Positions 1,953 through 27,135 of a stretch of 32,000 bases of DNA are shown here, in pieces. The translations under genes were made by a program, and so were the position numbers. The stretch's first letter is position 1. Each line of letters starts with the position of its first letter. The DNA is from Ferroglobus placidus DSM 10642 (GTDB lineage Archaea > Halobacteriota > Archaeoglobi > Archaeoglobales > Archaeoglobaceae). The stretch spans positions 480,001-512,000 of the forward strand of contig NC_013849.1 of assembly GCF_000025505.1 (NCBI RefSeq), in the 5' to 3' direction. Below the pieces are notes generated by a model. It worked only from the letters and a program-made list of their open reading frames with translations. It was not told the origin of the DNA and did not search any database.

Positions 1953-2231
1953 ATGCGCCGCCCGGTCTGCGAGCTTTGCGGGATTCCCGGAGATCTGACA
2001 AGGCATCACATTGTTCCAAATCCTGTTAGGAGGAGGCTTAAAAGGAAAAAAGGAAAGAGCGCGGAAGAAGTGAACAGCACAGTTCTCCTCTGCAGGGACT
2101 GCCACAGACAGCTCCACGCATTATTCACCGAAAAAGAGCTTGCTTGCATGACTTGGGATGAAATCAAAAGCAAAGAAAGTGTCAGGAAATGGGTTGACTG
2201 GATAAGGAAGAAGAGAGGGCAGAAGAGATAG
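1953..2231 (+). CDS. HNH (His-Me finger) endonuclease
   Basis: 92 aa: CELCG..TRHHIVPN..LLCRDCHRQLH. Two CxxC knuckles bracket the HH...N...H core typical of HNH nucleases. The C-terminal tail is basic. Confidence 0.7.
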   Translation: MRRPVCELCGIPGDLTRHHIVPNPVRRRLKRKKGKSAEEVNSTVLLCRDCHRQLHALFTEKELACMTWDEIKSKESVRKWVDWIRKKRGQKR

Positions 2232-2256
2232 CAGAGGTAACTAGATCTCGCAACCT

Positions 2257-3033
2257 CTACCAGCTATATGAATCCACGAGATTTCCATCAGCATCGTAAA
2301 GGTATGCTGTATCTCCGTCATTATTCCAGACAGGAGTCCAGGAGCACCAGTACAGATCAGTAGCTGTATCGGTACCGCAGCCTGTGTGCACCGTCACACT
2401 TTGAGATGGTTGAAGTGTGAAGTCGGGGAATGTATACACATGGCCTGCTTCATCTCTGAGCGACCAGCCACCCAGGTTTACGGCGGCGCCACCTTTATTC
2501 GTGATCACCACGTATTCGTCATTAAGGTTGTGCCAGTCGTTGCCAGCAGCGTCGTAGTGAACATAAGCTATTTTGGCCATTGGTTTGCCGACGATGTATA
2601 TGCTTTCTTCAAGTATTGTGCCTGAGGACACCATCAAAGCTAACCTGTACACACCAGTAGGAATGCTGGATACGTGAATGATGATTTGCTCACCACTCTC
2701 GAAAAAACCGTCATTGTAAAATTCCTGTTTGGTAATGTTGGTCGAGTCTCTATCCGCATTGCCGCTGTACATAACGTCACCTTCAGGGCTGTAAATAACG
2801 ATGTTGAGCTTTCTGAAATCTACTGGATCTCCACCGACATGTCTAACCACAATATTATCGGAGTGGCTGTACACCTTCGCTACAAATGCAGGGACACGAT
2901 CTATATCAACAGGGATAAAAGCCGCTATTCCGACAGTAGCCAGAACGGCTACCACAATAAGAATTAAAGCTACAAGCATGTTGCTTAGAGCTCTGCCATC
3001 ATCGCGAAACCCCATGCTCATACTATTTTTCAT
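2257..3033 (-). CDS. Archaeal type IV prepilin-like protein with C-terminal lamin-tail domain (LTD)
   Basis: ORF-track 2257..3318, trimmed. ATGs at 3033/3021/3015 lie just downstream of AAAGTTATATAC (3049-3060), implying a leaderless mRNA.
The N-terminus FRDDGRALSNMLVALILIVVAVLATVG fits the archaeal class III signal (consensus RAVSPVIG plus a hydrophobic helix).
The C-terminus AKIAYVHYDAAGNDWHNLNDEYVVITNKGGAAVNLGGWSLRDEAGHVYTFPDFTLQPSQSVTVHTG...WNNDGDTAYLYDADGNLVDSYSW fits the LTD pattern. Confidence 0.7.
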   Translation of the reverse strand: MKNSMSMGFRDDGRALSNMLVALILIVVAVLATVGIAAFIPVDIDRVPAFVAKVYSHSDNIVVRHVGGDPVDFRKLNIVIYSPEGDVMYSGNADRDSTNITKQEFYNDGFFESGEQIIIHVSSIPTGVYRLALMVSSGTILEESIYIVGKPMAKIAYVHYDAAGNDWHNLNDEYVVITNKGGAAVNLGGWSLRDEAGHVYTFPDFTLQPSQSVTVHTGCGTDTATDLYWCSWTPVWNNDGDTAYLYDADGNLVDSYSW

Positions 3034-3048
3034 AATTTGGTATTTGGT

Positions 3049-3060
3049 GTATATAACTTT
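3049..3060 (-). promoter_or_regulatory. BRE/TATA box AAAGTTATATAC of the pilin-LTD gene
   Basis: The minus strand reads AAAGTTATATAC, 15 nt upstream of ATG 3033. The identical 12-mer occurs upstream of the pilus ATPase gene at 17351-17362. Confidence 0.55.
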
Positions 3061-3202
3061 GTAGGTCTGAACGGTGGATGTGTATACTTTACAGCGAGAT
3101 TCTTGAAACTCTGAAGGATCTGAGAAAAAACCTCGTTTTGAACAGGCAATGAAGAGGAGAGGGCAGGAGTGCATGTAGCACCCTTGGATTTGTTCGTGAT
3201 TC

Positions 3203-3241
3203 TGTTTTTTCCTTATCCTGTGTTTTTTCCTTCTTATCCTG
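3203..3241. repeat. Tandem 18/21-bp direct repeat in a divergent promoter region
   Basis: tgttttttccttatcctg (3203-3220) is followed immediately by tgttttttccttcttatcctg (3221-3241). The units are identical except for a 3-nt ttc insertion. Confidence 0.85.
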
Positions 3242-3269
3242 TGAAAAGCGGAAAGGAGGGTGGTTGAGT

Positions 3270-3797
3270 ATGAGTAAGCGTGGAGGTAGCAGCAGGAAAA
3301 GAAAAAGCAATAATGCACAGCTTGCAGAGAAGGCGTTTCTGTACGCTGAAAAAGCCCCGGTCATAGCGTATCCTGGATGGGAGAGTGCTCTCAACTGTCA
3401 CTTCATGGACCTGATAGCTCACTACAGGATTTGCGAGGCCAGGTGGTGCATAAACAATGAGATCGCAACCGAGTACGAGGCTTTCACATACCTGTACACA
3501 GCTTCCCTGGCCACACCTTTTGACAGGGAGTGGTACAGGATCTACTTCCACCTCTTCAAAAAGTTTTACGGGCACCTGCTGAGCAAAATGGATGACTGGG
3601 ATGAGTGGGATGGAGGAGAGCTGTCTGACTATGAGAAGCAGCTTTTAATAGACCTGAGGAAATGGATATTCAAAAAGCAGATGAGAGTGCTCTCTCAGAT
3701 GCAGAAACAGAGGCAGATGCGGAAGCAGAGGCAGGGCAAAAGTGAGGCAGAACAGGAGAAGGGAGAGGGAGTAGAAACGGGAGAGGTGAGAGAGTGA
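3270..3797 (+). CDS. Hypothetical protein (175 aa) with Q/K/R-rich tail
   Basis: ORF-track 3264..3797 (TTG). ATG 3270 follows GGAGGGTGG. The stop overlaps the GTG start of the RNase H gene. No family recognised. Confidence 0.55.
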   Translation: MSKRGGSSRKRKSNNAQLAEKAFLYAEKAPVIAYPGWESALNCHFMDLIAHYRICEARWCINNEIATEYEAFTYLYTASLATPFDREWYRIYFHLFKKFYGHLLSKMDDWDEWDGGELSDYEKQLLIDLRKWIFKKQMRVLSQMQKQRQMRKQRQGKSEAEQEKGEGVETGEVRE

Positions 3798-4426
3798 AAG
3801 GAGTCCTGTACTTCGACGGAGCCTGTCTTCCCGTGAACCCGGGAGGAATCGCAACCTATGGCTTTGTGATCATCACACCATCCGGCGAAATTGTGAAGGA
3901 GAAGGGGATTGCTGCAGAGAAGGGGACGAACAACATTGCGGAGTACACCGCTCTAATAAGGGGGTTGGAAAAGGCCCTGGAGCTGGGCATTGACGAGCTC
4001 ATCGTCAGGGGGGACTCGCAGCTCGCAATCTACCAGATGAACGGTGTGTACGCTGTTAAATCACCAAACATAATTCCTCTATGGCAGAGGGCAATGGAGC
4101 TGGCAGGAAAGTTCAGGAAAATACGCTTCGAGTGGGTTCCGAGGGAGCAGAACAGTGCTGCTGATGAACTCTCAACTCAGGCCTACATCGAGCATGCGGA
4201 GCGGAAAAGCAGGGAGAGGAGTGAGGAGATAGAGAACTGGGAGATAAAGCATGTCTCCGGGCCGGTGTACCGTGTCAGAAGGTATGATGTTAATGTGGAG
4301 GAGAAAACGTGCACCTGTCCGCACTACTACAATGTCAACAGGTTCAAGCTGCTCAAAAAAGCGGGGATAAAAATAAGATGTAAGCACATATTTGCTGCAG
4401 AGAGGTATAGACAGAACAGAACATAA
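3794..4426 (+). CDS. RNase HI-type ribonuclease H fused to a C-terminal SWIM zinc finger
   Basis: The RNase H DEDD motif order is present: YFDGAC..NPGG, NNIAEYTALIRGLE, IVRGDSQL, EQNSAADELS. The C-terminus CTCPHYYNVNRFKLLKKAGIKIRCKH fits the SWIM pattern CxCx(n)CxH. Confidence 0.85.
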   Translation: MKGVLYFDGACLPVNPGGIATYGFVIITPSGEIVKEKGIAAEKGTNNIAEYTALIRGLEKALELGIDELIVRGDSQLAIYQMNGVYAVKSPNIIPLWQRAMELAGKFRKIRFEWVPREQNSAADELSTQAYIEHAERKSRERSEEIENWEIKHVSGPVYRVRRYDVNVEEKTCTCPHYYNVNRFKLLKKAGIKIRCKHIFAAERYRQNRT

Positions 4427-14250: not shown

Positions 14251-17200
14251 CTCTCCTCACCCAGCCCCTCCTGCCTCTCCTGCTCCTCTGACTCCTCCTG
14301 CCCTACCGATGGTACATCCTGCCCTTCTGATTCTGCCCTGTCCTCTGACAGATTATCTCCTTTTCCTCCCTCCCTCTTCCTTCCCTCGATCACACCCTCC
14401 TTCTTCATGTCTCTTATTTTTGTCTTTACAGCGCTGTAGCTCCTGTTGAGCGATTCTGCAATCTCCCGCAGAGGTTTCCCCTGTGTGTAAAGCTCGATCA
14501 GCTCCTGGATTTCCTCATCAGTCCATTTCCTTACACCACTTCCAGCTTCGCTCCTTTCGCTCTCTCCTTCTCTTCTCTCTCCCGCCTCTACTGCCTCTTC
14601 TGTCTCTGTAACCTCTACTGCCTCTTCCGTCTCGGCATCTACTGATCCTGCTCTTCCTGCTTCCTCTACCCCTCCCGTCTCTGCCTCTCCCTCACTTCCT
14701 GTTCCTGCAGCCTCATCCTCTACCCCACCTGCTCCTCCTACTCTATCTACTGCTTCCTGCTGAACAGCACTCACAACACCCTCTTCTTCCTCCATCAATT
14801 CTGACTCCACAGCTCGTAAAATCTCCATCCATTCCTCCTCCTTCTTTTTCTCTTCCTCTCTCTCTTCCTCCCTCATCCTGACTTCACCAATCTCTTCTCT
14901 CCCTACCTCCTCTGATACCTCCACGCCCTCCACTTTCCCTACTTCCTCCACCTTCTCTGACCCCTCTACCTCTTCCTCTTCCTCTGCCTCCCTTACCTCC
15001 TCTGCCTCACCTACATCCAATGTTTCTGCCACTCCTGCCGCTGTTCTCTCCACCTCTTTTACATCTCCCATCTCTCCCCCCTCCCCTACCACACCCTCAT
15101 CCACCTCCCTGCATGCTACTGCCTCGCTCTCGCCCTCCGCTACCCCTACCTCTCTCACCCATGCTGTATCCTCCTCTTTCACCTCTACCTCTCCCTCCGT
15201 CTCCGCCTCTGTCCCTACCTCCTCTGTCCCTACCTCCGACCCAATCTCTGCTTTCCCTACCACTACCTCTGTCCCTACCTCCCCTATCTCTGCTCCCTCA
15301 CCTACCTCTGCTGCCTCTACTCCCTCACCTACCACCTCACCTACCTCTACCCCCGTCCCTACCTCCTCTGTCCCTACCTCTGCTCCAACATCTGCTACCT
15401 CCACTTCCTCGCCTACCTCTGCCTCAGTTACTCTCGCTCCCTCTACCTCTGTCCCTACCACTTCTCCTTCCCGCACTTCCCCTTCTTTACCCTCCCATAC
15501 TTCTCCCTCCCCTGCCTCTTCCTGTCCCTCCTCTCTGTCTCCTTCCGCACCTACCATGCCCTCCAGGCCCTCCAGGTCATCCACACTCAGGCCCTGCAAA
15601 CTCTCCTCACTCCCCACACCCTCTGCAATTTCTGCACTTTCTGCACCAGCAAGCCCCTCTGCACCAGCAAGCTCTGCAGCCTCCACACTGAGCTCAGTTA
15701 TAGATTCAGCAGGCTCGGCAGATTCAGAAGTTGATTCAACTCCTGCCACACCCACAGATTCAGCTACACGCCCTAAATGGATCCTCTCAAAGAACCTTCT
15801 GTAATCTGCCCCCTCCTCCGCAAGCCTCCTGATCAGCCTTGTTCTCCTCTCCAGATCCTTCACAAGCTCCTCCCGTGATCTGCCCGTCCTCTCCGAGATG
15901 CGGTGAAGGATCCCTGAGAGATCGAGTTTCCTGTGCAAATCCCTCGGCCCGTCCCACCGGAAGAGAGGGGTGAGTTTTATGCCCTCCCCTGCCCTCACTC
16001 CCGCTATCTCTCCACCCTCTCCAGCTCCTTCCTCCTCTCCAACCAGCCATATTCCGCTGCACCTTCTGAACACCCTGTCCCCCCTCCTGAAGCTCCCTAC
16101 CACCACAACCAGATCTAAATTCAGAATCATAGCTCTCGGAACAGAGTAGGGAGGGCTCATCAGCCTGTTAATCACAGCCTCAGCACTGCTGCCGTGGACT
16201 GTGGAAAGGCACGTGTGGCCGAGGGCCATTGCCTGGAACATGATTTCAACCTCCTTCCCTCTCACCTCTCCAACTATGATGTACTCAGGCCTCTGTCTCA
16301 GAGCTGCCTTCAGCAGGGCGAACATGTCTATTCTGTCAGTTGCAACCGAGGGGATCCAGTTCTTGTGTGGCAGCAGAACTTCCCTTGTATCCTCTATGGA
16401 CACAACCTTGGAGTGGTATGGTATGAAGAGTGCTGTCGCGTTCATTGCAGTCGTTTTTCCTGCTGCTGTACCTCCAACAAACAGCATCGATCCATTCGAC
16501 TCAAGGCAGAGCCAGAGTAGGGCGAGCTCTTCAGCCGAAAAGGAGTTCCACCTCACAAGATCCACGGGGGTGACAGGAGTTTTCTTCACCTTCCTCACGG
16601 TGAATGTTGATCCGTGATCTGTAACCTCGCTCCTGAATGTCAGCTGAACTCTACTGCCATCATACAGGGTTGTGTCAGCAATTGGGTTTGCCATGCTGAT
16701 CTCAATACCCCTCCGCTGTGCAACAGCCAGAACGAAGTCGTCAAGCTCCTCATTGCTCATCACAATGTTTGTGGGGATGCTCTCGTACAGGCTGTGGTAA
16801 ACAAAGACGGGTTTGTTGTATCCGCTGCAGGATATGTCCTCAATAAACCGGTCCTTGAGGAGGGGGGTTATGCGGCCCGCATAGATACAGTCCCTCTCAA
16901 GGTAGTACCACATCTTTGCGATGGTTTCCAGTTCCAGCTTAAGCTCCTGTTCCGGCTCATGTTCACGTTTGCGTTTGTGTTCACGTTTAGTGGGTAATTC
17001 TGTGAGTATGACTTCCTTGAACGCCTCGAATAAAGTTTCCCTGTCGTCCTCCGAGGCGTGCAGGGGGACCCTTTCAAGCACCCTCTCCTTCAGATCCTGG
17101 AGGAACTCAACCTCCTTATTTGTGAGGTCGGGTTCAAGCAGGGCGTAGAAGTATCCCTTGCCATCTGTAAGGATTTGCGCTGCTGCAAAGGGCATCTCCA

Positions 17201-17431: not shown

Positions 17432-18034
17432 ATGGGTAAGACTGATGTGAGCGAGCAGGCCAAGGTAGACGTTGAGTTTGGCTGTTTTCAAGACTTCCAG
17501 GACTACAGGTGTGGGGGTAGGGATTGCAGGGATTGTACTTTCCGGGAAGATTGTGTAGAGCTGAAGGTTAGAGAGATCACGAGAATAATTCTTCAGACTG
17601 AGGAAAGGGTACCGAGCGGCGTTCTCGCCACAATCTTCAACGTACCAGAACAGCTTGTCAAAAAAATAAGGAGCTATGTTGAGCGGGAGATTGTCAGAAA
17701 GAAGATACTGGGAGAAAAGGCAAAACAGTGGCAGACCGCCCAGGCAGAGCATAGACAGGCTACCAAGCAAGAAGAGGAGACAAAGCGGAGAAAAAACCCC
17801 AGGGCAAAAACAAAGGCAAAGGTGAGGAGGTGGACATACGAGGAGACCCAGAAGCTGATTGAGCTTTACACGCAGGGAAAACCACTGCGGGAGATTGCAG
17901 AATCGCTCAACAGGAGTTACAGAGCAGTGGAAAAAAGGCTGTACAAACTGAGAGAGGAAGGGGTAGTGGGGGTTAGAGTGGGGGGTGGTGGGAAAGAGGG
18001 AGGAGGTGTGGGTGGGGGTGTGGGAGGTGCATGA
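17432..18034 (+). CDS. Putative transcription regulator: Cys-rich N-terminus plus Myb/GcrA-like HTH plus Gly-rich tail
   Basis: The N-terminus is CFQDFQDYRCGGRDCRDCTFREDC. The C-terminal module RRWTYEETQKLIELYTQGKPLREIAESLNRSYRAVEKRLYKLREEG is nearly identical to the ATPase C-terminus. The tail is GGGGKEGGGVGGGVGGA. Confidence 0.6.
   Translation: MGKTDVSEQAKVDVEFGCFQDFQDYRCGGRDCRDCTFREDCVELKVREITRIILQTEERVPSGVLATIFNVPEQLVKKIRSYVEREIVRKKILGEKAKQWQTAQAEHRQATKQEEETKRRKNPRAKTKAKVRRWTYEETQKLIELYTQGKPLREIAESLNRSYRAVEKRLYKLREEGVVGVRVGGGGKEGGGVGGGVGGA
17825..17929 (+). repeat. HTH-module copy 2 (other arm of the inverted duplication)
   Basis: See 14427-14531. The perfect 32-nt core ctgcgggagattgcagaatcgctcaacaggag lies at 17885-17916. 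Confidence 0.85.
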
Positions 18035-20787: not shown

Positions 20788-20952
20788 CTATTTTAAAACC
20801 CTCCATACCCTCACAACCTCTGCCTTGGCTGGCTTTCCTTCAACAAAAATTTCTATAGCTCTATGCTTTCCCGTTTGGTGGATTAGCCTTGGCTTTGACA
20901 CCTTTCTGCCAACACACCTGATCTTCTCCCCTTCAATCCTCTGGTTCGACAT
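20788..20952 (-). CDS. Small ORF (54 aa) overlapping the 3' end of the RHH gene; possible toxin-like partner or remnant
   Basis: ATG 20952 overlaps the RHH gene by 20 nt. Product: MSNQRIEGEKIRCVGRKVSKPRLIHQTGKHRAIEIFVEGKPAKAEVVRVWRVLK. It falls below the ORF-track cut-off. No family recognised. Confidence 0.2.
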   Translation of the reverse strand: MSNQRIEGEKIRCVGRKVSKPRLIHQTGKHRAIEIFVEGKPAKAEVVRVWRVLK

Positions 20953-21253
20953 ATCCCTCCTCCCACAGCTCCAAAAGAATGTCGTTCACAAGGCTGAGAT
21001 CAATTCTCAATGCATCGGCAATTTCATCAGCCCGGATTCTCTCCTTTCCCGTGATAAATTCAATAATTTCCCTCTTTGCCTGTTCTCTCGGGATGTCTCT
21101 GAGTTCAACCACCTCAAGCCCCCTCAGTTCCTCAGCGTAATGCCTGATTGCCTCTCTGATTGCCTCAGCCTTGGATATCTTCAGTTTTTTAATGATGATG
21201 TCGAGTTCTTTCTCAACTTCCGTTAAGTCCACGGGATAAACATACCTCTGCAT
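20933..21253 (-). CDS. Ribbon-helix-helix (CopG/antitoxin-like) plus winged-HTH DNA-binding protein
   Basis: ORF-track 20933..21298, trimmed to ATG 21253. That start lies about 24 nt downstream of TTTTTATACC (21273-21282), so the mRNA is probably leaderless. The RHH part is VDLTEVEKELDIIIKKLKISKAEAIREAIRHY. The wHTH-like part is ADEIADALRIDLSLVNDILLELWEEGYVE. Confidence 0.7.
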   Translation of the reverse strand: MQRYVYPVDLTEVEKELDIIIKKLKISKAEAIREAIRHYAEELRGLEVVELRDIPREQAKREIIEFITGKERIRADEIADALRIDLSLVNDILLELWEEGYVEPED

Positions 21254-21596
21254 GGTATAAGTCGTATAGATTGGTATAAAAACTTGTTGGTTTGACAATT
21301 TGTTTTGGTGCTTTTATTTTTCTACAAGTTAATTAAAAATTCTCAAACTAAATCAAAGAAGTGCAATTACTGTGAGGTGCGGAAACTCTGTTAGAGCTGC
21401 GAAATGCCTCAAATACGGTTAGAAGTCCTGTATTATTTAGACCCAATATATCTAAAGTTCAAACTAAATATCTGCCCTATTTTCTTTGATAGTTCTGCTT
21501 TCCATTAGATAATGGATTTCAGGAATAAAAATTGCATTATCGCTGTTCTTCTGCTTCTCGAACTACTTTGAAGGGATATATTGGCAGATATAGCTG

Positions 21597-21634
21597 GAAG
21601 TCCTTTTTAAATATGCATGCATTTTCAGGACTTC
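21597..21634 (+). promoter_or_regulatory. 38-bp palindrome-flanked TATA element, copy A
   Basis: GAAGTCCT-ttttaaatatgcatgcattttc-AGGACTTC (8+22+8). In a 39-nt alignment that adds one downstream base, 26 positions match copy B at 26987-27024. A half-site GAAGTCCT also occurs at 21422-21429. Confidence 0.5.
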
Positions 21635-21698
21635 AGGGAGGCTCTGGAAAAAAGATATATACGGGTAGTGTTAATTTTATTGAGACATTTTAGGTGGT

Positions 21699-21778
21699 GT
21701 AGAAAAGCAGGTATCCTGAAAATGGATATTGAAAGCCATATACAACCGTGTACTAACTCAAGCAGAAATCATTGAAAG
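21699..21778 (+). repeat. Solitary CRISPR-repeat-like unit plus a truncated second copy (possible one-spacer mini-array)
   Basis: The 37-mer gtagaaaagcaggtatcctgaaaatggatattgaaag (21699-21735) ends in ATTGAAAG, the terminus typical of many archaeal type I/III repeats. A second aagcag..attgaaag ends at 21778, with its ATTGAAAG 43 nt downstream of the first. The unit starts 64 nt downstream of palindrome copy A. It is weak on its own. Confidence 0.25.
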
Positions 21779-21809: not shown

Positions 21810-22814
21810 TCAAAAAGCTCTGATACTGTCAATAAATCTTAACCTCTTCGGAATTGGTGGGTGTGTTGACAGAAACTCTTGCATTGGTGAAACCCTTGCT
21901 TTCTTCAGCCTTTCTATGTCTATTCTTGATATTGGCTCAGCCACTGCATTAACGAAAGCGTATATAAACAGGGTTTTAAGCTTGCTTTCAGCAACAACAT
22001 CTGCATATCTCGGGTAGTGGTTGTAGAACAGATGTATTTTTGCAAGACTTCTCTGCATTGATTCTTTGCTTGTAGCTCTCACACCCTCAAAGTCCGCATA
22101 ATATTCTCTGAGTCTGCTGAAGGCAAGAACGAGTATCTGAACGATGAAAGACACTATGACAGCAGCAAAACCCACAGCTGCGAGCTGCATCCCCCTTCTG
22201 TCATCTCTGAAGGATGCATGAATCAGAGCATAGCCAAGGTAGAAGATTACAGATGGGAGAAGGCCAAATAGGAGCATAACAAGGTTGTCTCTGTGTTTGT
22301 GATGCCCGAGTTCATGACCAATTACAGCTTCCAGCTCATCTCTGTCAAGCATGTTTATAAGGCTGTCAGAAACTGCAACGTACTTTCCTGTCAGAATGTT
22401 TCCGTATGCAAAGGCATTTGGTGGGGAAGAAACAACTACTGCCTTAGGAGGATTTACGTTTAGTCTTCTCGCTACGTTGTTTACAACCATCTGCAGTGCT
22501 TCATCTCTCCTGGCCCCATAAGTTGCATTGATGATGAAGGGTGAAATCAGGTACATCAGCAGATTTATGGCAATGAGAAAGATGATAAGTCCATAAAAGC
22601 TGATGTAGTAGCCTGCAAAGCTCAGGATAACATATATTACGCCCGCCGAAATAGAAATAATAAGAATTGCCAGCAGAACCATTGAGGTTAGCAGAGAGAA
22701 GTTCCCCGAAACTCTGCTTGCAACCTTCGGGGCTACGGTGCTGGCCAACATCAGCATTACAGCATATCCGAGCATTGCCAGCAGTATGTAGATCGGGTCA
22801 AAGAGGAACATCAT
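21810..22814 (-). CDS. htpX: HtpX-family M48 zinc metalloprotease (membrane)
   Basis: 334 aa with four or more TM helices. It has the HEXXH motif in VIGHELGHHKHRD and the AFAYG..YVAVSDSLINML context typical of HtpX homologues. Confidence 0.85.
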   Translation of the reverse strand: MMFLFDPIYILLAMLGYAVMLMLASTVAPKVASRVSGNFSLLTSMVLLAILIISISAGVIYVILSFAGYYISFYGLIIFLIAINLLMYLISPFIINATYGARRDEALQMVVNNVARRLNVNPPKAVVVSSPPNAFAYGNILTGKYVAVSDSLINMLDRDELEAVIGHELGHHKHRDNLVMLLFGLLPSVIFYLGYALIHASFRDDRRGMQLAAVGFAAVIVSFIVQILVLAFSRLREYYADFEGVRATSKESMQRSLAKIHLFYNHYPRYADVVAESKLKTLFIYAFVNAVAEPISRIDIERLKKARVSPMQEFLSTHPPIPKRLRFIDSIRAF

Positions 22815-22914: not shown

Positions 22915-24777
22915 TCAGTAGCACATCCCACTAATTTTTGGTATAAGCTCCTCGAATGCTGCCACTATCTCAACTTCCTTCCTCGTTTTGAGGAGGTTGA
23001 CCATGTACTCCACAAAATCATTCACAACCTCAGGGTCCTTCACGGGGAACCTGTCCTTGTCCCTTTTCAGGTTCAGCATCCTGATCACCTCATCCCTTCC
23101 TTCCTTCAAAAGCGTGCACACTATCTCCTTCGAAAGCTTCTTTGAAAGTATGCCAGCCTCCATGAACTCCCTCAGCCTTGCAATGTCTCCTGCTTCAACG
23201 CTAATTTTCTCCACCTCAGCAGATTTCACAGCAGCCCTGATCTCAACTGCAAGCTCTTCTCCTGCAGACATAAGCTCGCCCACAACCTCTCCGTACCTCC
23301 TGAGTATCAGCATCTCTCCCTCTCTGACAAGCAACAGCGGTTCCGGATGTATGCTCAGCCCCATGAAGTCGACAAAGCCTGGCTTGAAGTCAATGATTGC
23401 CCTGCCCTCTCTTTCTCCATCCATGCCCGCTCTTCCTCCCCATCCAAGGTCAGCCTCTTCCCCTCTCTCAGGAATGGATTTCCTGACCTTTGGCAGTCTT
23501 GCAAGCAGGTTTCTGGCAGCCTCCTCCTCTCCGTGAACGATGTATATCCTCCTCGGATAGTAGTCCATCCCCTCAACAAAGCCAACCAGCCCATCCTCAT
23601 CTGCGTGGGCTGAGAATGCACTAACATTCACAACATTGCACCTCACATCCACCTCATCACCATTCACGTACACAAGCTTATTTCCATCAACTATCTGCCT
23701 GCCAAGTGTCCCCTCCGCCTGATAGCCAACAAACAGGACTGTTGAGTTCTCATCCTGCAATATGTAAGGCAGGTGGTTCAGGACTCTCCCTCCCTCAAGC
23801 ATTCCGGATGCTGAGAGGATTATGCACGGCTCATTACTCTTAGCCAGCTCCCTGCTCCTGTTGTATGTTGTTACATACTCAAGCCCCTCAAACTCTATCG
23901 GGTTTTTCCCCCTCAGGAACAGCTCGTAAAACTCTTTTCTGAGCATGTTGCTGTAGCTTTTGTAGATATCCGTTACTCTGCTGCCAAGCGGTGTGTCGAG
24001 ATAAACCTTTACCCTGATTTTGTCCCTGAGATTCCTCAGAACATACAGGACCTCCTGCGCCCTTCCAACGGCAAACACTGGAATCAATACTTTACCACCG
24101 GCCTTTATCGTGTCGCTTATCACAGCCTTCATGGTTTCCACAGCTTTTGCCCTGTCCTCATGCCTTCTGTTCCCGTATGTTGACTCCATTATCAGCACAT
24201 CCGCCTCTTTTGGTGGGGTGGGAGGGTTCATGAGTGGAGAGGTGCCTGAACCTATGTCTCCAGTATAGCAGATTTGCAACCCGTTGATTCTGAGCAGTGT
24301 GACTGCAGAGCCAAGGATGTGGCCCGCATCGAGGAAGCTGAGCTTCACATCCTGCAGCCTTACGGGTTTGTTGTAGGGATAGGCGTCGAAATGAGACATC
24401 ACCTCAACAACATCCCTCTCATCAAAAAGGGGCGGGATGTTGCTTTTTTCGTACTCCTCCTTCATAATTTTTGCAGAATCAAGCAAGAGCAGCTCGGCTA
24501 TCGCCCTTGTTGCGGTTGTTGTTACAACCCTCCCCCTGAACCCCCTGAGGTAGAGGTAGGGGATCAGCCCTGAGTGGTCGATGTGGGCGTGGCTGAGTAT
24601 AATGTAGTCAATCTCGGATGGATCGAATGGGATGTGTTTTTCCCGCTCCACAGAATCAACTCCCTGCCTCATTCCACAGTCCAGCAGGATCTTCGTTTTA
24701 CCCGTATCAAGCAGGTGCATCGATCCGGTGACTTCCCTGCATGCTCCCAGAAATCTGATTTTAACCACACTCACCAC
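22915..24777 (-). CDS. Metallo-beta-lactamase / beta-CASP nuclease (CPSF/RNase J superfamily) with an unrecognised 175-aa C-terminal extension
   Basis: Motifs: FLGACREVTGS, LLDCG, HAHIDHSG (HxHxDH), DAGHILGSA, YTGDIG, ESTYG, beta-CASP IPVFAVGRAQE, SAFSAHAD and IVHGE. The canonical fold ends near aa 445 (..IPERGEEADLG). aa 446-620 (nt 22918-23442) have no motif I recognise. The start is GTG 24777 or 24768, after AGAGGTGGTGA. Confidence 0.85.
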   Translation of the reverse strand: MVSVVKIRFLGACREVTGSMHLLDTGKTKILLDCGMRQGVDSVEREKHIPFDPSEIDYIILSHAHIDHSGLIPYLYLRGFRGRVVTTTATRAIAELLLLDSAKIMKEEYEKSNIPPLFDERDVVEVMSHFDAYPYNKPVRLQDVKLSFLDAGHILGSAVTLLRINGLQICYTGDIGSGTSPLMNPPTPPKEADVLIMESTYGNRRHEDRAKAVETMKAVISDTIKAGGKVLIPVFAVGRAQEVLYVLRNLRDKIRVKVYLDTPLGSRVTDIYKSYSNMLRKEFYELFLRGKNPIEFEGLEYVTTYNRSRELAKSNEPCIILSASGMLEGGRVLNHLPYILQDENSTVLFVGYQAEGTLGRQIVDGNKLVYVNGDEVDVRCNVVNVSAFSAHADEDGLVGFVEGMDYYPRRIYIVHGEEEAARNLLARLPKVRKSIPERGEEADLGWGGRAGMDGEREGRAIIDFKPGFVDFMGLSIHPEPLLLVREGEMLILRRYGEVVGELMSAGEELAVEIRAAVKSAEVEKISVEAGDIARLREFMEAGILSKKLSKEIVCTLLKEGRDEVIRMLNLKRDKDRFPVKDPEVVNDFVEYMVNLLKTRKEVEIVAAFEELIPKISGMCY

Positions 24778-24930: not shown

Positions 24931-25923
24931 CTAAACAACCACAAACTCTCCCTTTCCAAAGCTTGTTTTAGCCCCTATACCCCTAAGCTCGGCGATGGCA
25001 AGGCATTCGTAGAAAATCTCCGGCGGTTTTTCTGCAAACTCAACCTGCACCTTTGCCCCGGCAGGAATTGCCATGTCCTTCATAATCCTGTTCTTTCCCC
25101 CGTTTGGTGTCACCTTTCTGTGGAGCGACAAAACCGTTCTGGGGGGCAGGCATTCCTTCTTAACCCCCACAAATGGATCCTCATAGCTTTCATAATCCGG
25201 GTGGAAGTGCCTTCCGGCATTCTTCACCCCCGTGAGGATAGTCTCTCCCGTAAGCTCCCCGATGAAGTCGGAGATGAAGTGAAGGGTTAGCCTGTCCTTT
25301 CTTTCCAGCTCTCTTTCCAGCTCTCTTGCCCTCCTCCTGATATCCTCCAGCCTTATCATCCTGTAGTTCAGCCTGTCAATCCTGAAGTGCCCCTTCCCCT
25401 TTCCGCTCCTCCTCCCCAGCTTCAGCCCGTTCTCCTCTATCAGCTCCATTACTGCAACAAATTCCTCAGCATAATCCTCCCCCCTCCTCATATTAAGTAC
25501 AGCCTTAAACCTGTAGCTGTATCCGCGCGTAACCGCTTCAAGTCTGAAGGCCGACGTTTTTCCGGTCTTTCTGTCAACCCTCGTCTGGATGATTGTGCCT
25601 TTTCTGGTAGGATGCTTTAAAACCTGGCCGCATGTGCTGCACTTAAAGTTCTGAAACTTCTCAGCCACAAAGGGTAGAAGGAGTCCTCCGTCAGCATGAA
25701 GGGGAATTGCATCCTTGAAGTAGATTAGCGCTGCATTCTCGTCCAAAAAGCTCTTGCTCAATCCAGCATTAACATGCAGGAGTTCATACCCAACACTCCC
25801 CCTTATGTGCTGTCCCTGCGGATAGGGGTGGGTGGTGGAAAGTCCGTGTTTCTTGAAACCAGTTCCAAGGTGGTACTCGGTGATGTTGGTGATCACACCC
25901 TCAGCCACAAGAGCCACCTTCAT
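24931..25923 (-). CDS. Two-domain RAMP protein, Cas5 group-like (Csm4/Cmr3/Csf3-like) with a Zn-knuckle insert
   Basis: 330 aa. Motifs: N-terminal ITEYHLGTG..YPQGQHIRGSVGYELL, FKDAIPL, the insert FKCSTCGQ, VDRKTGKTSAFRLEAVTRGYSYRF, a first G-rich loop LGRRSGKGKGHFRI, and a second, terminal G-rich loop GIGAKTSFGKGEFVVV. ATG 25923 follows GAGGAGAGAGGT. Confidence 0.65.
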   Translation of the reverse strand: MKVALVAEGVITNITEYHLGTGFKKHGLSTTHPYPQGQHIRGSVGYELLHVNAGLSKSFLDENAALIYFKDAIPLHADGGLLLPFVAEKFQNFKCSTCGQVLKHPTRKGTIIQTRVDRKTGKTSAFRLEAVTRGYSYRFKAVLNMRRGEDYAEEFVAVMELIEENGLKLGRRSGKGKGHFRIDRLNYRMIRLEDIRRRARELERELERKDRLTLHFISDFIGELTGETILTGVKNAGRHFHPDYESYEDPFVGVKKECLPPRTVLSLHRKVTPNGGKNRIMKDMAIPAGAKVQVEFAEKPPEIFYECLAIAELRGIGAKTSFGKGEFVVV

Positions 25924-25988: not shown

Positions 25989-26600
25989 CTACAGCTTTTC
26001 AAGGATGTTTCTGGCCTGCTTGAGGAAGTCCGTCCACTCCCTCTCCTGAATACTGAAATCTACCTTCACCCTTCCTCTTCCTCTCGTAACCCATCCCCCA
26101 ATTCCGAACTCCTCTATTGCCTTCAATCCAGCAACAATTAATTCCTTATCCCTCGGCTTCGGATCCACAACCCTTATTTTCCCCGTGAACACCGCTCCCT
26201 CCTCGATCTCCTCAATTTTGAGGGTGTTCGACACCACCCCATCCTCCCTGCTGATTCTGAGGTGCACTGATGGATGGACAATCTCCTTGTAAGATCTCTC
26301 AGAGACAAGGTCATCAATAATTGCTCTCCCCTTCTTCCCCAGAGATCCAAAGAGATCGCAGAGAACACATCTCCCGCATGGCTTTGCATCCTTCATCCCG
26401 GTATCACATACATTCTCGCCGTTCTCCCTCAGAATTCTCTCCAGATACCCCCTCAAAGCACCGTATATGGGGATTGCAACTCTCCCGTCCCCTGTTATTC
26501 TTGCAAGCTTTATATCTGCCTTCCTGTCCATTTTAATTTCTCCTGTCACTGCTGGCAAGGTTGTTGTGGCCTTTATATCGAACACCAGATACTTATTCAC
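25989..26600 (-). CDS. RAMP protein, Cas7 group-like (Csm3/Cmr4/Csf2-like)
   Basis: ORF-track 25989..26621, trimmed to GTG 26600, 3 nt after GGGGGTGAT. Signature order: YLVFDIKATTTLPAVTG, IPIYGALRGYLE (compare IPGSSxKGxxR), CGRCVLCDLFGS (compare CxxCxLFG), TLKIEEIEEGAVFTGKIRV, and GIGGWVTRGRGRVKV (G-rich loop). Confidence 0.75.
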   Translation of the reverse strand: MNKYLVFDIKATTTLPAVTGEIKMDRKADIKLARITGDGRVAIPIYGALRGYLERILRENGENVCDTGMKDAKPCGRCVLCDLFGSLGKKGRAIIDDLVSERSYKEIVHPSVHLRISREDGVVSNTLKIEEIEEGAVFTGKIRVVDPKPRDKELIVAGLKAIEEFGIGGWVTRGRGRVKVDFSIQEREWTDFLKQARNILEKL

Positions 26601-26637: not shown

Positions 26638-26647
26638 TATTTAAATA
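26638..26647 (-). promoter_or_regulatory. TATA box of the RAMP gene pair
   Basis: TATTTAAATA is centred about 43 nt upstream of GTG 26600. That is consistent with a short SD-containing leader. It lies between the last degenerate repeat and the Cas7-like gene. Confidence 0.5.
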
Positions 26648-26680
26648 GTTTGCGTATATGTGTATAGTATCCTAAAGTCT

Positions 26681-26921
26681 TTGGATTCACTCTCCTTTGC
26701 AGCGTTATAGTGGTGAGCGAACCCGTCGATACGTTAGAATGTGGATTCATATCATCGTCTTCATCCTCTTTTGCAACCTCAGTGATGGTAGGAAGCTTCC
26801 AGAAAGCACAATTCTGTGGACTCGTATCATTGTCCTATCTCCCTTTGCAATTCTTGTGTATGAAGCAGCATACGACATCATAGAGTGGATTCGTATCATC
26901 ATCCTCATCTCCCTCTGCAAC
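26681..26921 (-). CRISPR. Degenerate mini-array: 4 repeats (~37 nt) and 3 spacers (33/38/37 nt)
   Basis: + strand units:
- R3 26885-26921 gtggattcgtatcatcatcctcatctccctctgcaac
- R2 26816-26851 gtggactcgtatcattgtcctatctccctttgcaat
- R1 26741-26777 gtggattcatatcatcgtcttcatcctcttttgcaac
- R0 26681-26703 ttggattcactctcctttgcagc (internal ~14-nt deletion)
The period is 69-75 bp. Decay increases away from the TATA-bearing AT-rich side at 26922-27024, so the array is probably transcribed on the - strand, like the RAMP genes. Confidence 0.5.
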
Positions 26922-26986
26922 CCCTACCATATATCTCTGTTTCTGTTTAAATACCTATATCCTTTCTCCTTCATAGCCAGAAGTGT

Positions 26987-27024
26987 GAAGTCCTCAAAAT
27001 GGGTTTAAGTATTTAAAGGACTTC
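26987..27024 (-). promoter_or_regulatory. 38-bp palindrome-flanked TATA element, copy B (putative leader promoter/operator of the mini-array)
   Basis: The minus strand reads GAAGTCCT-ttaaatacttaaacccattttg-AGGACTTC. The first repeat (R3) starts 65 nt downstream. A second TATA-like TATTTAAAC lies at about 26946-26954. Confidence 0.5.
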
Positions 27025-27135
27025 AAATCGAATCTGAGCAATTATGAGGTTTCTCTCAAGCAATCCGCCGGACATGGTTGCATATTACAATTTATTTATA
27101 CCTGAGGCCCGCCTGAAACAGATTTAACCTATCGC

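Follow-up and report, generated by a model that had tools for sequence, protein, structure and literature searches.

A palindrome bracketing a TATA-like box precedes both a type VII CRISPR mini-array and a solitary CRISPR repeat of another type in Ferroglobus placidus

Introduction

Why should one and the same palindromic element stand at almost the same distance ahead of two CRISPR loci whose repeats are unrelated? The question is raised by a stretch of 32,000 nucleotides from the archaeon Ferroglobus placidus DSM 10642 (contig NC_013849.1, positions 480,001 to 512,000), referred to below as the window and numbered from its first base. Two full copies of the element, A and B, lie in it on opposite strands, copy A ahead of a lone repeat of the DR47 family and copy B ahead of a mini-array that belongs to a type VII CRISPR-Cas locus (Table 1). 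A preliminary description made from the letters of the stretch had placed both copies correctly, with their perfect 8-bp arms, their 22-nt cores and their distances of 64 and 65 nt to the next repeat, and had proposed a common operator-over-TATA promoter driving two small repeat-containing transcripts. The loci downstream are indeed genuine CRISPR repeats, and the preliminary description had recognised neither the type VII nature of the locus behind copy B nor the differing CRISPR types of the two repeats.

The explanation favoured here, to which we give roughly even chances, is that the two copies represent a duplicated leader-promoter module that has been kept, and that its arms would bind a symmetric protein and so bring two heterotypic CRISPR RNA (crRNA) units under common control.

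Table 1. Positions of the palindromic copies, the repeat units and the genes around them.
Feature	Position	Strand	Remarks
Copy A, GAAGTCCT-N22-AGGACTTC	21597..21634	+	TTTAAATA at 21606-21613
Copy B, arms and spacing as in copy A	26987..27024	-	TTTAAATA at 27017-27010
Copy C, degenerate third copy	21402..21461	+	Intact left arm at 21422-21429, without a right arm
Copy-A leader	21635..21698	+	64 nt to the solitary repeat; two T4 runs
Solitary CRISPR repeat, DR47 family, type I/III style	21699..21735	+	Hairpin UCC-UGAAAAU-GGA and 3' AUUGAAAG tag
Spacer-like segment, 35 nt	21736..21770	+	Without match in the window or in viral contigs
Second ATTGAAAG	21771..21778	+	One 72-nt CRISPR period past the repeat start
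Type VII mini-array leader	26922..26986	-	65 nt to R1
Type VII mini-array	26680..26921	-	Three full repeats and a truncated R4; repeats 36-37 nt, spacers 33-38 nt
Mini-array R1, S1, R2	R1 26921-26885; S1 26884-26852; R2 26851-26816	-	
Mini-array S2, R3, S3, R4	S2 26815-26778; R3 26777-26741; S3 26740-26704; truncated R4 from 26703	-	
Separate TTTAAATA box	26638..26645	-	38 nt before the cas7 GTG start, then an GGGGGTGAT ribosome-binding site
cas7 (type VII)	25989..26600	-	Matches a chain of the solved type VII complex, E = 1.7e-46
cas5 (type VII), with extra C-terminal RAMP-like part	24931..25923	-	Matches a type VII complex chain, E = 2.4e-11
cas14, beta-CASP nuclease and C-terminal domain	22915..24768	-	NCBIfam and PDB matches
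M48/HtpX-like peptidase gene, last between the copies	21810..22814	-	Closes the cluster
RHH-wHTH (ribbon-helix-helix, winged helix-turn-helix) gene	20933..21298	-	Adjoins the element; link not conserved

The palindromic element

In copies A and B alike, perfect inverted arms (GAAGTCCT and AGGACTTC) enclose the core, each half-site being GAAGTCCT followed by an A/T-rich run, and in copy B the symmetry reaches further, to arms of 15 nt (26986-27000 and 27011-27025). The pair was found independently by a repeat finder (I3) as a 39-nt inverted repeat, 5350 nt apart and 74% complementary, which puts the agreement between the copies at 29 of 39 bases and corrects the earlier count of 26 of 39. The half-site reported previously at 21422-21460 is real as well and is treated here as a third, degenerate copy; the outer flank of this copy C resembles that of copy B at 10 of 14 bases, and with one gap the agreement comes to 30 of 39 overall.

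The recurrence of the element is far from random. The pattern GAAGTCCT-N22-AGGACTTC matches exactly 2 times in the 32 kb, against an expectation of 7.4e-6, and shuffled sequences yield a mean of 0.28 matches to the arm motif when 3 mismatches are allowed. Short-range 8-bp palindromes are common in the window (97 pairs), and the signal is the recurrence of one same palindrome, not palindromy alone. Furthermore, every one of the five occurrences of the 8-mer GAAGTCCT in the window belongs to copy A, B or C.

The way in which the copies differ is also informative. All ten mismatches between A and B fall within the 22-nt core (p = 0.0014) and the arms are identical at 16 of 16 bases, while the TATA-like 8-mer is offset by 2 nt between the copies and the total spacing is unchanged. 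Since the mismatches are confined to the core and the spacing is fixed, the comparison speaks for selection having acted on the arms and their spacing, rather than for recent neutral duplication. Inverted half-sites kept between sites at a fixed spacing of 22 nt, the feature looked for in an operator, were found in copies A and B. Three read sets gave assemblies that agree with the window at 99.97-100% identity and cross both copies unbroken; contigs of these sets end at exact repeats of at least 31 nt, as was confirmed at 17887, and the unbroken contigs across the copy-B leader and the copy-A region mean that neither is repeated at 31-nt identity.

A role of the palindromes as hairpins or terminators was considered and rejected, given that they fold only weakly as single-stranded DNA (-5 to -8 kcal/mol) and that the copy-A RNA is not unusually structured.

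The type VII locus behind copy B

The locus behind copy B is, judged by its sequence, a member of type VII among the CRISPR-Cas systems, and the three sequence features tested for were all found. Following copy B on the minus strand come the array, cas7, cas5, cas14 and the M48 peptidase gene, in this order, the products of cas7 and cas5 being RAMP proteins. Cas14 (617-620 aa) fits the NCBIfam equivalog NF045584 over its full length with 1031.8 bits against a cut-off of 800, its best PDB match is the Cas14 chain 8yhd_H (E = 2.5e-92), and its full-length relatives reach identities of up to 60%. The array has substituted repeats, R1 and R3 being identical at 30 of 37 bases, and the 3' part of the repeat, ATGATAnGAnTnnAC, is found again in the array of L028, which is an independent type VII locus. 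No cas1 or cas2 was found among the open reading frames (ORFs) of the window that were scanned, and the locus is without cas6. In the 2025 CRISPR classification (PMC12669027), F. placidus is named as the sole case of a complete genome that carries a type VII system.

The polarity of the array is shown by a related strain. A contig of an environmental strain that is 96.9% identical (L110, run ERR15087786) has a different S1 and differences in R1 and R2, its S2, R3, S3 and R4 being identical to the window; in the comparison of L110:1-112 with window 26921-26816 the leader-proximal spacer reads TTGCAAATTCTAAGGCTACAATCCTGAATTCCTCCTA. As the variation is limited to R1, S1 and R2, the end facing copy B is the leader end of the array, and the difference in the spacer implies spacer turnover in a system that is without adaptation genes of its own. 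Targets of S1 to S3 and of the 35-nt segment behind copy A were not found within the window, where the best matches cover 21-23 of 33-38 bases, about the chance level.

One other type VII locus was retrieved from the collections scanned. None related to this one was seen in viral contigs or in a metagenome scan with a single protein, and a homologous-protein search with the C-terminal domain found nothing. An alignment-based metagenome scan returned mostly generic beta-CASP genes and one true type VII locus, L028, which differs in layout and is without the GAAGTCCT element. Just upstream of its cas7, at L028:3337-3375, there is a palindrome of unrelated sequence and similar architecture, TTAGAAAGAA-N19-TTCTTTCTAA, around an A/T-rich core.

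Two further observations concern this locus. The Cas5 protein measures 325-330 aa, compared with 240 aa in the solved complex, and only residues 33-185 align; the C-terminal part, residues ~190-330, ends in a glycine-rich loop and gives weak Cas6-like matches (PF10040, E = 0.009; PADLOC Cas6, E = 5.5e-4), so this extension could be a Cas6-like module that replaces the absent cas6. The read-set contigs meet at R1 (26891-26921), with L108 ending at R1 base 30 and L025 starting at R1 base 2. From these breaks on both sides of R1[1-31] it follows that an identical 31-mer must exist elsewhere in the F. placidus genome, and this second site is probably a further type VII-style array or an orphan repeat.

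The solitary repeat behind copy A

The 37-mer at 21699-21735, singled out in the preliminary description, coincides with an end-to-end match to the Rfam family CRISPR-DR47 (model positions 1-37 of 37). A local search gives the match an E value of 4e-5; in a search of the entire window it has E = 0.007, ranks just behind the tRNA and is the sole CRISPR-DR match. Of its final 23 bases 22 agree with the consensus of the family, and this stretch takes in the UCC/GGA stem, the UGAAAAU loop and the AUUGAAAG tag; the hairpin, which is present in the predicted fold, can be extended to 6-7 bp. Tags of the AUUGAAAG kind are typical of Cas6-processed repeats of types I and III. In a direct comparison the 37-mer agrees with R1 of the type VII array at 11 of 37 positions, and the two repeats are unrelated. 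Were the sole DR match of the window placed at random, the probability of its mirroring the copy-B distance at the other palindrome would be about 1.7e-4.

The repeat has no second copy in the window and there is no second DR47 match at E <= 10; it is therefore solitary. The unit 21699-21778 thus differs from a CRISPR array, with its at least two repeat copies around a spacer, in that only the 8-mer ATTGAAAG recurs. This second ATTGAAAG, also noticed earlier, is real; such a recurrence within 100 nt has a chance of about 0.0016, the 8-mer is not enriched across the window, and the 37 nt that start at 21771 agree with the repeat at only 15 of 37 positions on direct reading. For the 35-nt segment in between, the best ungapped match in the window (22 of 35) lies inside a pilus gene. 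Viral contigs hold no match to the DR47-like core or to this segment. No repeat resembling those of type VII was found downstream of copy A, the best ungapped matches (20-23 of 36-37) all lying outside the copy-A region.

The solitary repeat and the cas operon face each other in convergent orientation. Past the M48 stop codon, reading along the minus strand, a T6 at 21653-21648 is the earliest strong T run; a 3' untranslated region (UTR) reaching that far would put the type VII/M48 transcript in antisense to the solitary-repeat RNA. A tRNA-Ala gene lies 3.3 kb away from the unit, the window showed neither an integrase nor viral genes, and viral and plasmid collections gave no matches.

Two candidate features of this region were discarded. 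A 12/14 match that pairs the 35-nt segment with a TATA-like region upstream of copy B does not exceed the scores of shuffled sequence, and an inverted, degenerate DR47-like sequence at 21533-21498, which has one 8-mer in common with the repeat and goes undetected by the covariance model, is put down to chance.

Promoter architecture and proposed mechanism

The 8-mer TTTAAATA occurs five times in the window, against 0.58 expected, and two of the five are those inside copies A and B, beside the left arm. Its presence on the left side only makes the element directional. A separate box of the same sequence stands before cas7 at the distance expected of a promoter and may serve as an internal control for what a promoter looks like in this genome. 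In archaeal promoters the TATA box is usually centred near -26, with the TFB-recognition element (BRE) just upstream of it. On this spacing, transcription is predicted to start at about 21635 (+) for copy A and at about 26986 (-) for copy B, with the left arm over the presumed BRE position and the right arm over -9 to -2. The architecture is consistent with that of an archaeal promoter combined with a putative operator. Between repression and activation, which cannot be told apart from the sequence, the placement of the arms leans to repression, because they flank the TATA box and cover the predicted start site.

A further TATA-like box, TATAAATAAA, lies at 27091-27100 (-), about 75 nt upstream of the TATA box of copy B and after a DUF5658 gene, so that transcription from a start ahead of the palindrome could also extend into the array.

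In the preferred reading, copies A and B would be two versions of one leader-promoter module in which a TATA box is bracketed by inverted arms 64-65 nt before a repeat. Copy B would act as the leader promoter of the type VII mini-array, with possible read-through into cas7-cas5-cas14. Copy A would drive the solitary DR47-like repeat and the 35-nt guide-like segment, giving a crRNA-like RNA for the type I/III machinery of the host; host Cas6 would cut this RNA to leave AUUGAAAG and 35 nt, with a predicted 5' end at 21728. The copy-A RNA would be transcribed towards the type VII/M48 operon and would be antisense to its 3' end. The arms would be the putative sites of one symmetric DNA-binding protein that switches both units together.

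The operator-over-TATA idea of the preliminary description thus survives in part: conserved arms, fixed spacing and a TATA box beside the left arm speak for it, and two other points of that description are not supported. The first is the weak similarity claimed for the leaders. In local and anchored global alignments the two leaders score no better than shuffles (p = 0.09-0.37), and the words that they have in common are attributable to chance. The second is the proposed binder. The RHH-wHTH gene and an overlapping gene of 54-55 aa form a two-gene module (20788-21298, minus strand) that is 74% identical at the DNA level to modules in contigs from metagenome-assembled genomes (MAGs) of Ferroglobus sp. 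(L112-L121), where it stands in at least two other neighbourhoods, and the GAAGTCCT palindrome is absent upstream of the module in these ten MAG contigs. As the module occurs elsewhere without the palindrome, what links the RHH-wHTH protein to the element is adjacency, together with weak matches to the wHTH of CasR/Csa3-like proteins; a PDB search with the protein gave no informative relative.

A bolder and quite doubtful extension is that the type VII cassette encodes a crRNA-like RNA of another CRISPR type under the operator of its own array. Once the operator opened, the cell would make type VII guides and, with them, this RNA, which Cas6 would process and which would enter the type I/III machinery of the host; there it could direct that machinery to the antisense 3' UTR of the type VII/M48 operon, or be a decoy. 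If true, this would amount to a hard-wired regulatory link between two CRISPR types.

A sequence identity between palindrome and repeat was also noticed. The exact 11-mer TCCTGAAAATG is common to the right half-site of copy A (21620-21630, minus strand, GAAGTCCTGAAAATGCAT) and to the core of the repeat hairpin (21714-21724, plus strand); the counterpart of this half-site in copy B is TCCTCAAAATG. Shuffled repeats had an 11-mer in common with the palindromes in 10 of 5000 cases, a count made post hoc. The arms may have been derived from repeat sequence, or one repeat-binding protein may read both arms and repeat; the identity hints that a single protein of this kind might recognise the palindrome half-site as well as the repeat hairpin.

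Weighing the explanations

Several results weigh against a kept and co-regulated promoter module. The full copies number two, in one genome. A scan of the GTDB representative genomes for the 18-base form GAAGTCCTTT-N20-AGGACTTC brought up no further exact copy above the chance level; it gave 13 matches, all in unrelated bacteria or a haloarchaeon, with about 17 expected by chance, and it did not return the two copies of the window itself, the source stretch being masked or the genome absent from the collection. The lack of a further exact copy means that the element is not a general leader motif. No related contig that was retrieved holds both flanks, L110 and the contig of a 99.66% identical strain (L109, which matches as far as the M48 start) stopping short of copies A and B. 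On the side of the solitary unit, the DR47 match reaches 34.8 bits and stays under the Rfam gathering score of 39, no target could be detected for the spacer-like 35-nt segment, shuffled sequences fold as stably as the copy-A transcript (z = -0.08), and the T4 runs in the copy-A leader could lower read-through into the repeat. In viral contigs the 16-base arm motif gave 11 scattered single matches, and the plasmid collection gave none. If the arms reflected only a local promoter duplication, the result would be a modest annotation of one locus.

In an unlikely alternative, the palindrome would chiefly serve spacer integration as a motif of the leader, bound by a Csa3a-like or IHF-like host factor at a set distance from the leader-repeat junction and used by host Cas1-Cas2 in trans, with the type VII array and a one-repeat 'seed' array as its substrates; this would be compatible with promoter activity. 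The distance of 64 or 65 nt to the first repeat base is fixed for two unrelated repeats, as such a motif would explain, and Csa3a leader motifs at -130 to -103 and at -79 to -53 do affect adaptation. Type VII loci are without adaptation genes (PMC12669027), and yet the leader-proximal spacer varies between strains. However, the S1 difference is accompanied by changes in both flanking repeats, which also fits recombination with a second R1-like locus, and the scanned ORFs include no adaptation gene of the cas1/cas2 kind. Moreover, the genome paper on F. placidus counts 6 CRISPR arrays, and since the motif is not found elsewhere in representative genomes the host's other arrays are apparently without it.

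It is also rather improbable that only copy B is functional and that copy A with its solitary repeat, and copy C, are the decaying remnants of an old leader or of a local duplication. Copy C is clearly degenerate, the sequence past the 'spacer' of the solitary repeat is not detectable as a repeat, no target was found for the spacer-like segment, and the leaders are dissimilar, all of which suits a relic. In copy A, however, every arm base is intact, as are the TATA box and the exact spacing, with 10 of the 22 core bases changed, the distance from copy A to the repeat is preserved, and the hairpin and 8-nt tag of that repeat are near perfect, a state of preservation that fits the preferred module better than decay.

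That the inverted copies are the terminal inverted repeats or recombination sites of a 5.4-kb mobile or invertible cassette, reaching from the array to the solitary repeat, is very improbable. The copies are inverted and enclose the whole type VII module, and copies C and B have outer flank sequence in common; however, no transposase or recombinase lies inside or adjoins the segment, in which only cas genes and the M48 gene are found, and the flanks, read directly, show no target-site duplication. Being itself a palindrome around 22 bp of core, each copy is unlike the core sites of tyrosine or serine recombinases, the pair identity of 74% is too low for homologous inversion, and the assemblies of the three read sets continue through both copies uninterrupted. 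Scarcely credible, finally, is a small protein as the product of the copy-A region: a 52-aa ORF with an ATG start does exist at 21617-21775 (+), beginning inside the palindrome, but it is uncalled by the gene caller on the identical contig, has no comparable ORF at copy B and has its ATG upstream of the predicted transcription start, and coding would leave the end-to-end DR47 match and the hairpin as unexplained coincidences.

Other features of the window

Three TTATAC-like direct repeats lie at the start of the RHH-wHTH gene. Farther away, a 107-nt inverted repeat (14428-14534 and 17822-17928; 85% identical, with an exact 32-mer included) encodes the same Myb/HTH-like domain twice, once at the C-terminus of a 1028-aa ATPase of the T2SSE type and once in a 200-aa HTH protein. 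The gene of the secretion or pilus ATPase contains, at 14550-15560 (-), about 1 kb of low-complexity repeats with a 9-nt period that encode a Glu/Gly/Val-rich linker. The region 1953-4426 (+) holds many ORFs without a family match, along with genes for a small HNH endonuclease (1953-2231) and for an RNase H / RVT_3 protein (3794-4426), the latter two being possible traces of foreign DNA.

Comparison with known systems

Regulated archaeal CRISPR leaders, as in the case of Csa3a, and standalone repeats are already known. The literature searched did not show a TATA-bracketing operator of the kind proposed here, common to the array of a type VII system and to a solitary repeat of another CRISPR type.

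The closest parallel for the element itself is provided by Csa3a in Sulfolobus, whose palindromic binding motifs in the leader stand about as far from the first repeat (PMC5587795). As in the Csa3a leaders (PMC5587795, PMC9456107), an imperfect palindrome lies tens of bases before the first repeat and is present on more than one promoter; there it switches CRISPR transcription and adaptation. In contrast, the arms here bracket the TATA box with 30 bp between their centres, which suggests occlusion rather than upstream activation, and the sequence is unrelated. The two units preceded by the element are of different CRISPR types here, and no CARF-wHTH factor was identified.

For the solitary unit, two kinds of known RNA are comparable. 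Like the standalone repeats, crRNA-like mini-arrays and crRNA-like RNAs (crlRNAs) described by Shmakov et al. (10.1101/2023.03.03.530964; 10.1101/2024.12.27.630466), it is a lone repeat near a cas locus, with a promoter of its own (here a predicted one) and followed by a spacer-like segment. Unlike RNAs of the crlRNA/CreA type, which copy the repeat of the adjacent system and have spacers that partly match a promoter, this repeat agrees with its type VII neighbour at just those 11 of 37 positions, and no match to a cas or cargo promoter was found in the window. The RNA anti-CRISPRs (Racrs; PMC10651486) likewise consist of a solitary repeat unit with an intact Cas6-recognition hairpin and a strong-looking promoter; known Racrs are carried by mobile elements and mimic host repeats.

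With respect to the published accounts of type VII (PMC10910872, PMC12669027), a leader promoter, a palindrome and a heterotypic repeat were not found described in them, and the present locus is without cas6. In its Cas14, Cas7 and Cas5 proteins, its small array with substituted repeats and its lack of adaptation genes, the locus is like the type VII systems of those accounts. Type VII is the newest and rarest CRISPR type, and the locus bears on its regulation, on crRNA maturation without cas6 and on spacer gain without adaptation genes. As F. placidus is cultured, the predictions made for the 38-bp element, the two predicted start sites and the heterotypic repeat are directly testable, and so becomes cross-talk between type VII and the type I/III systems of the host.

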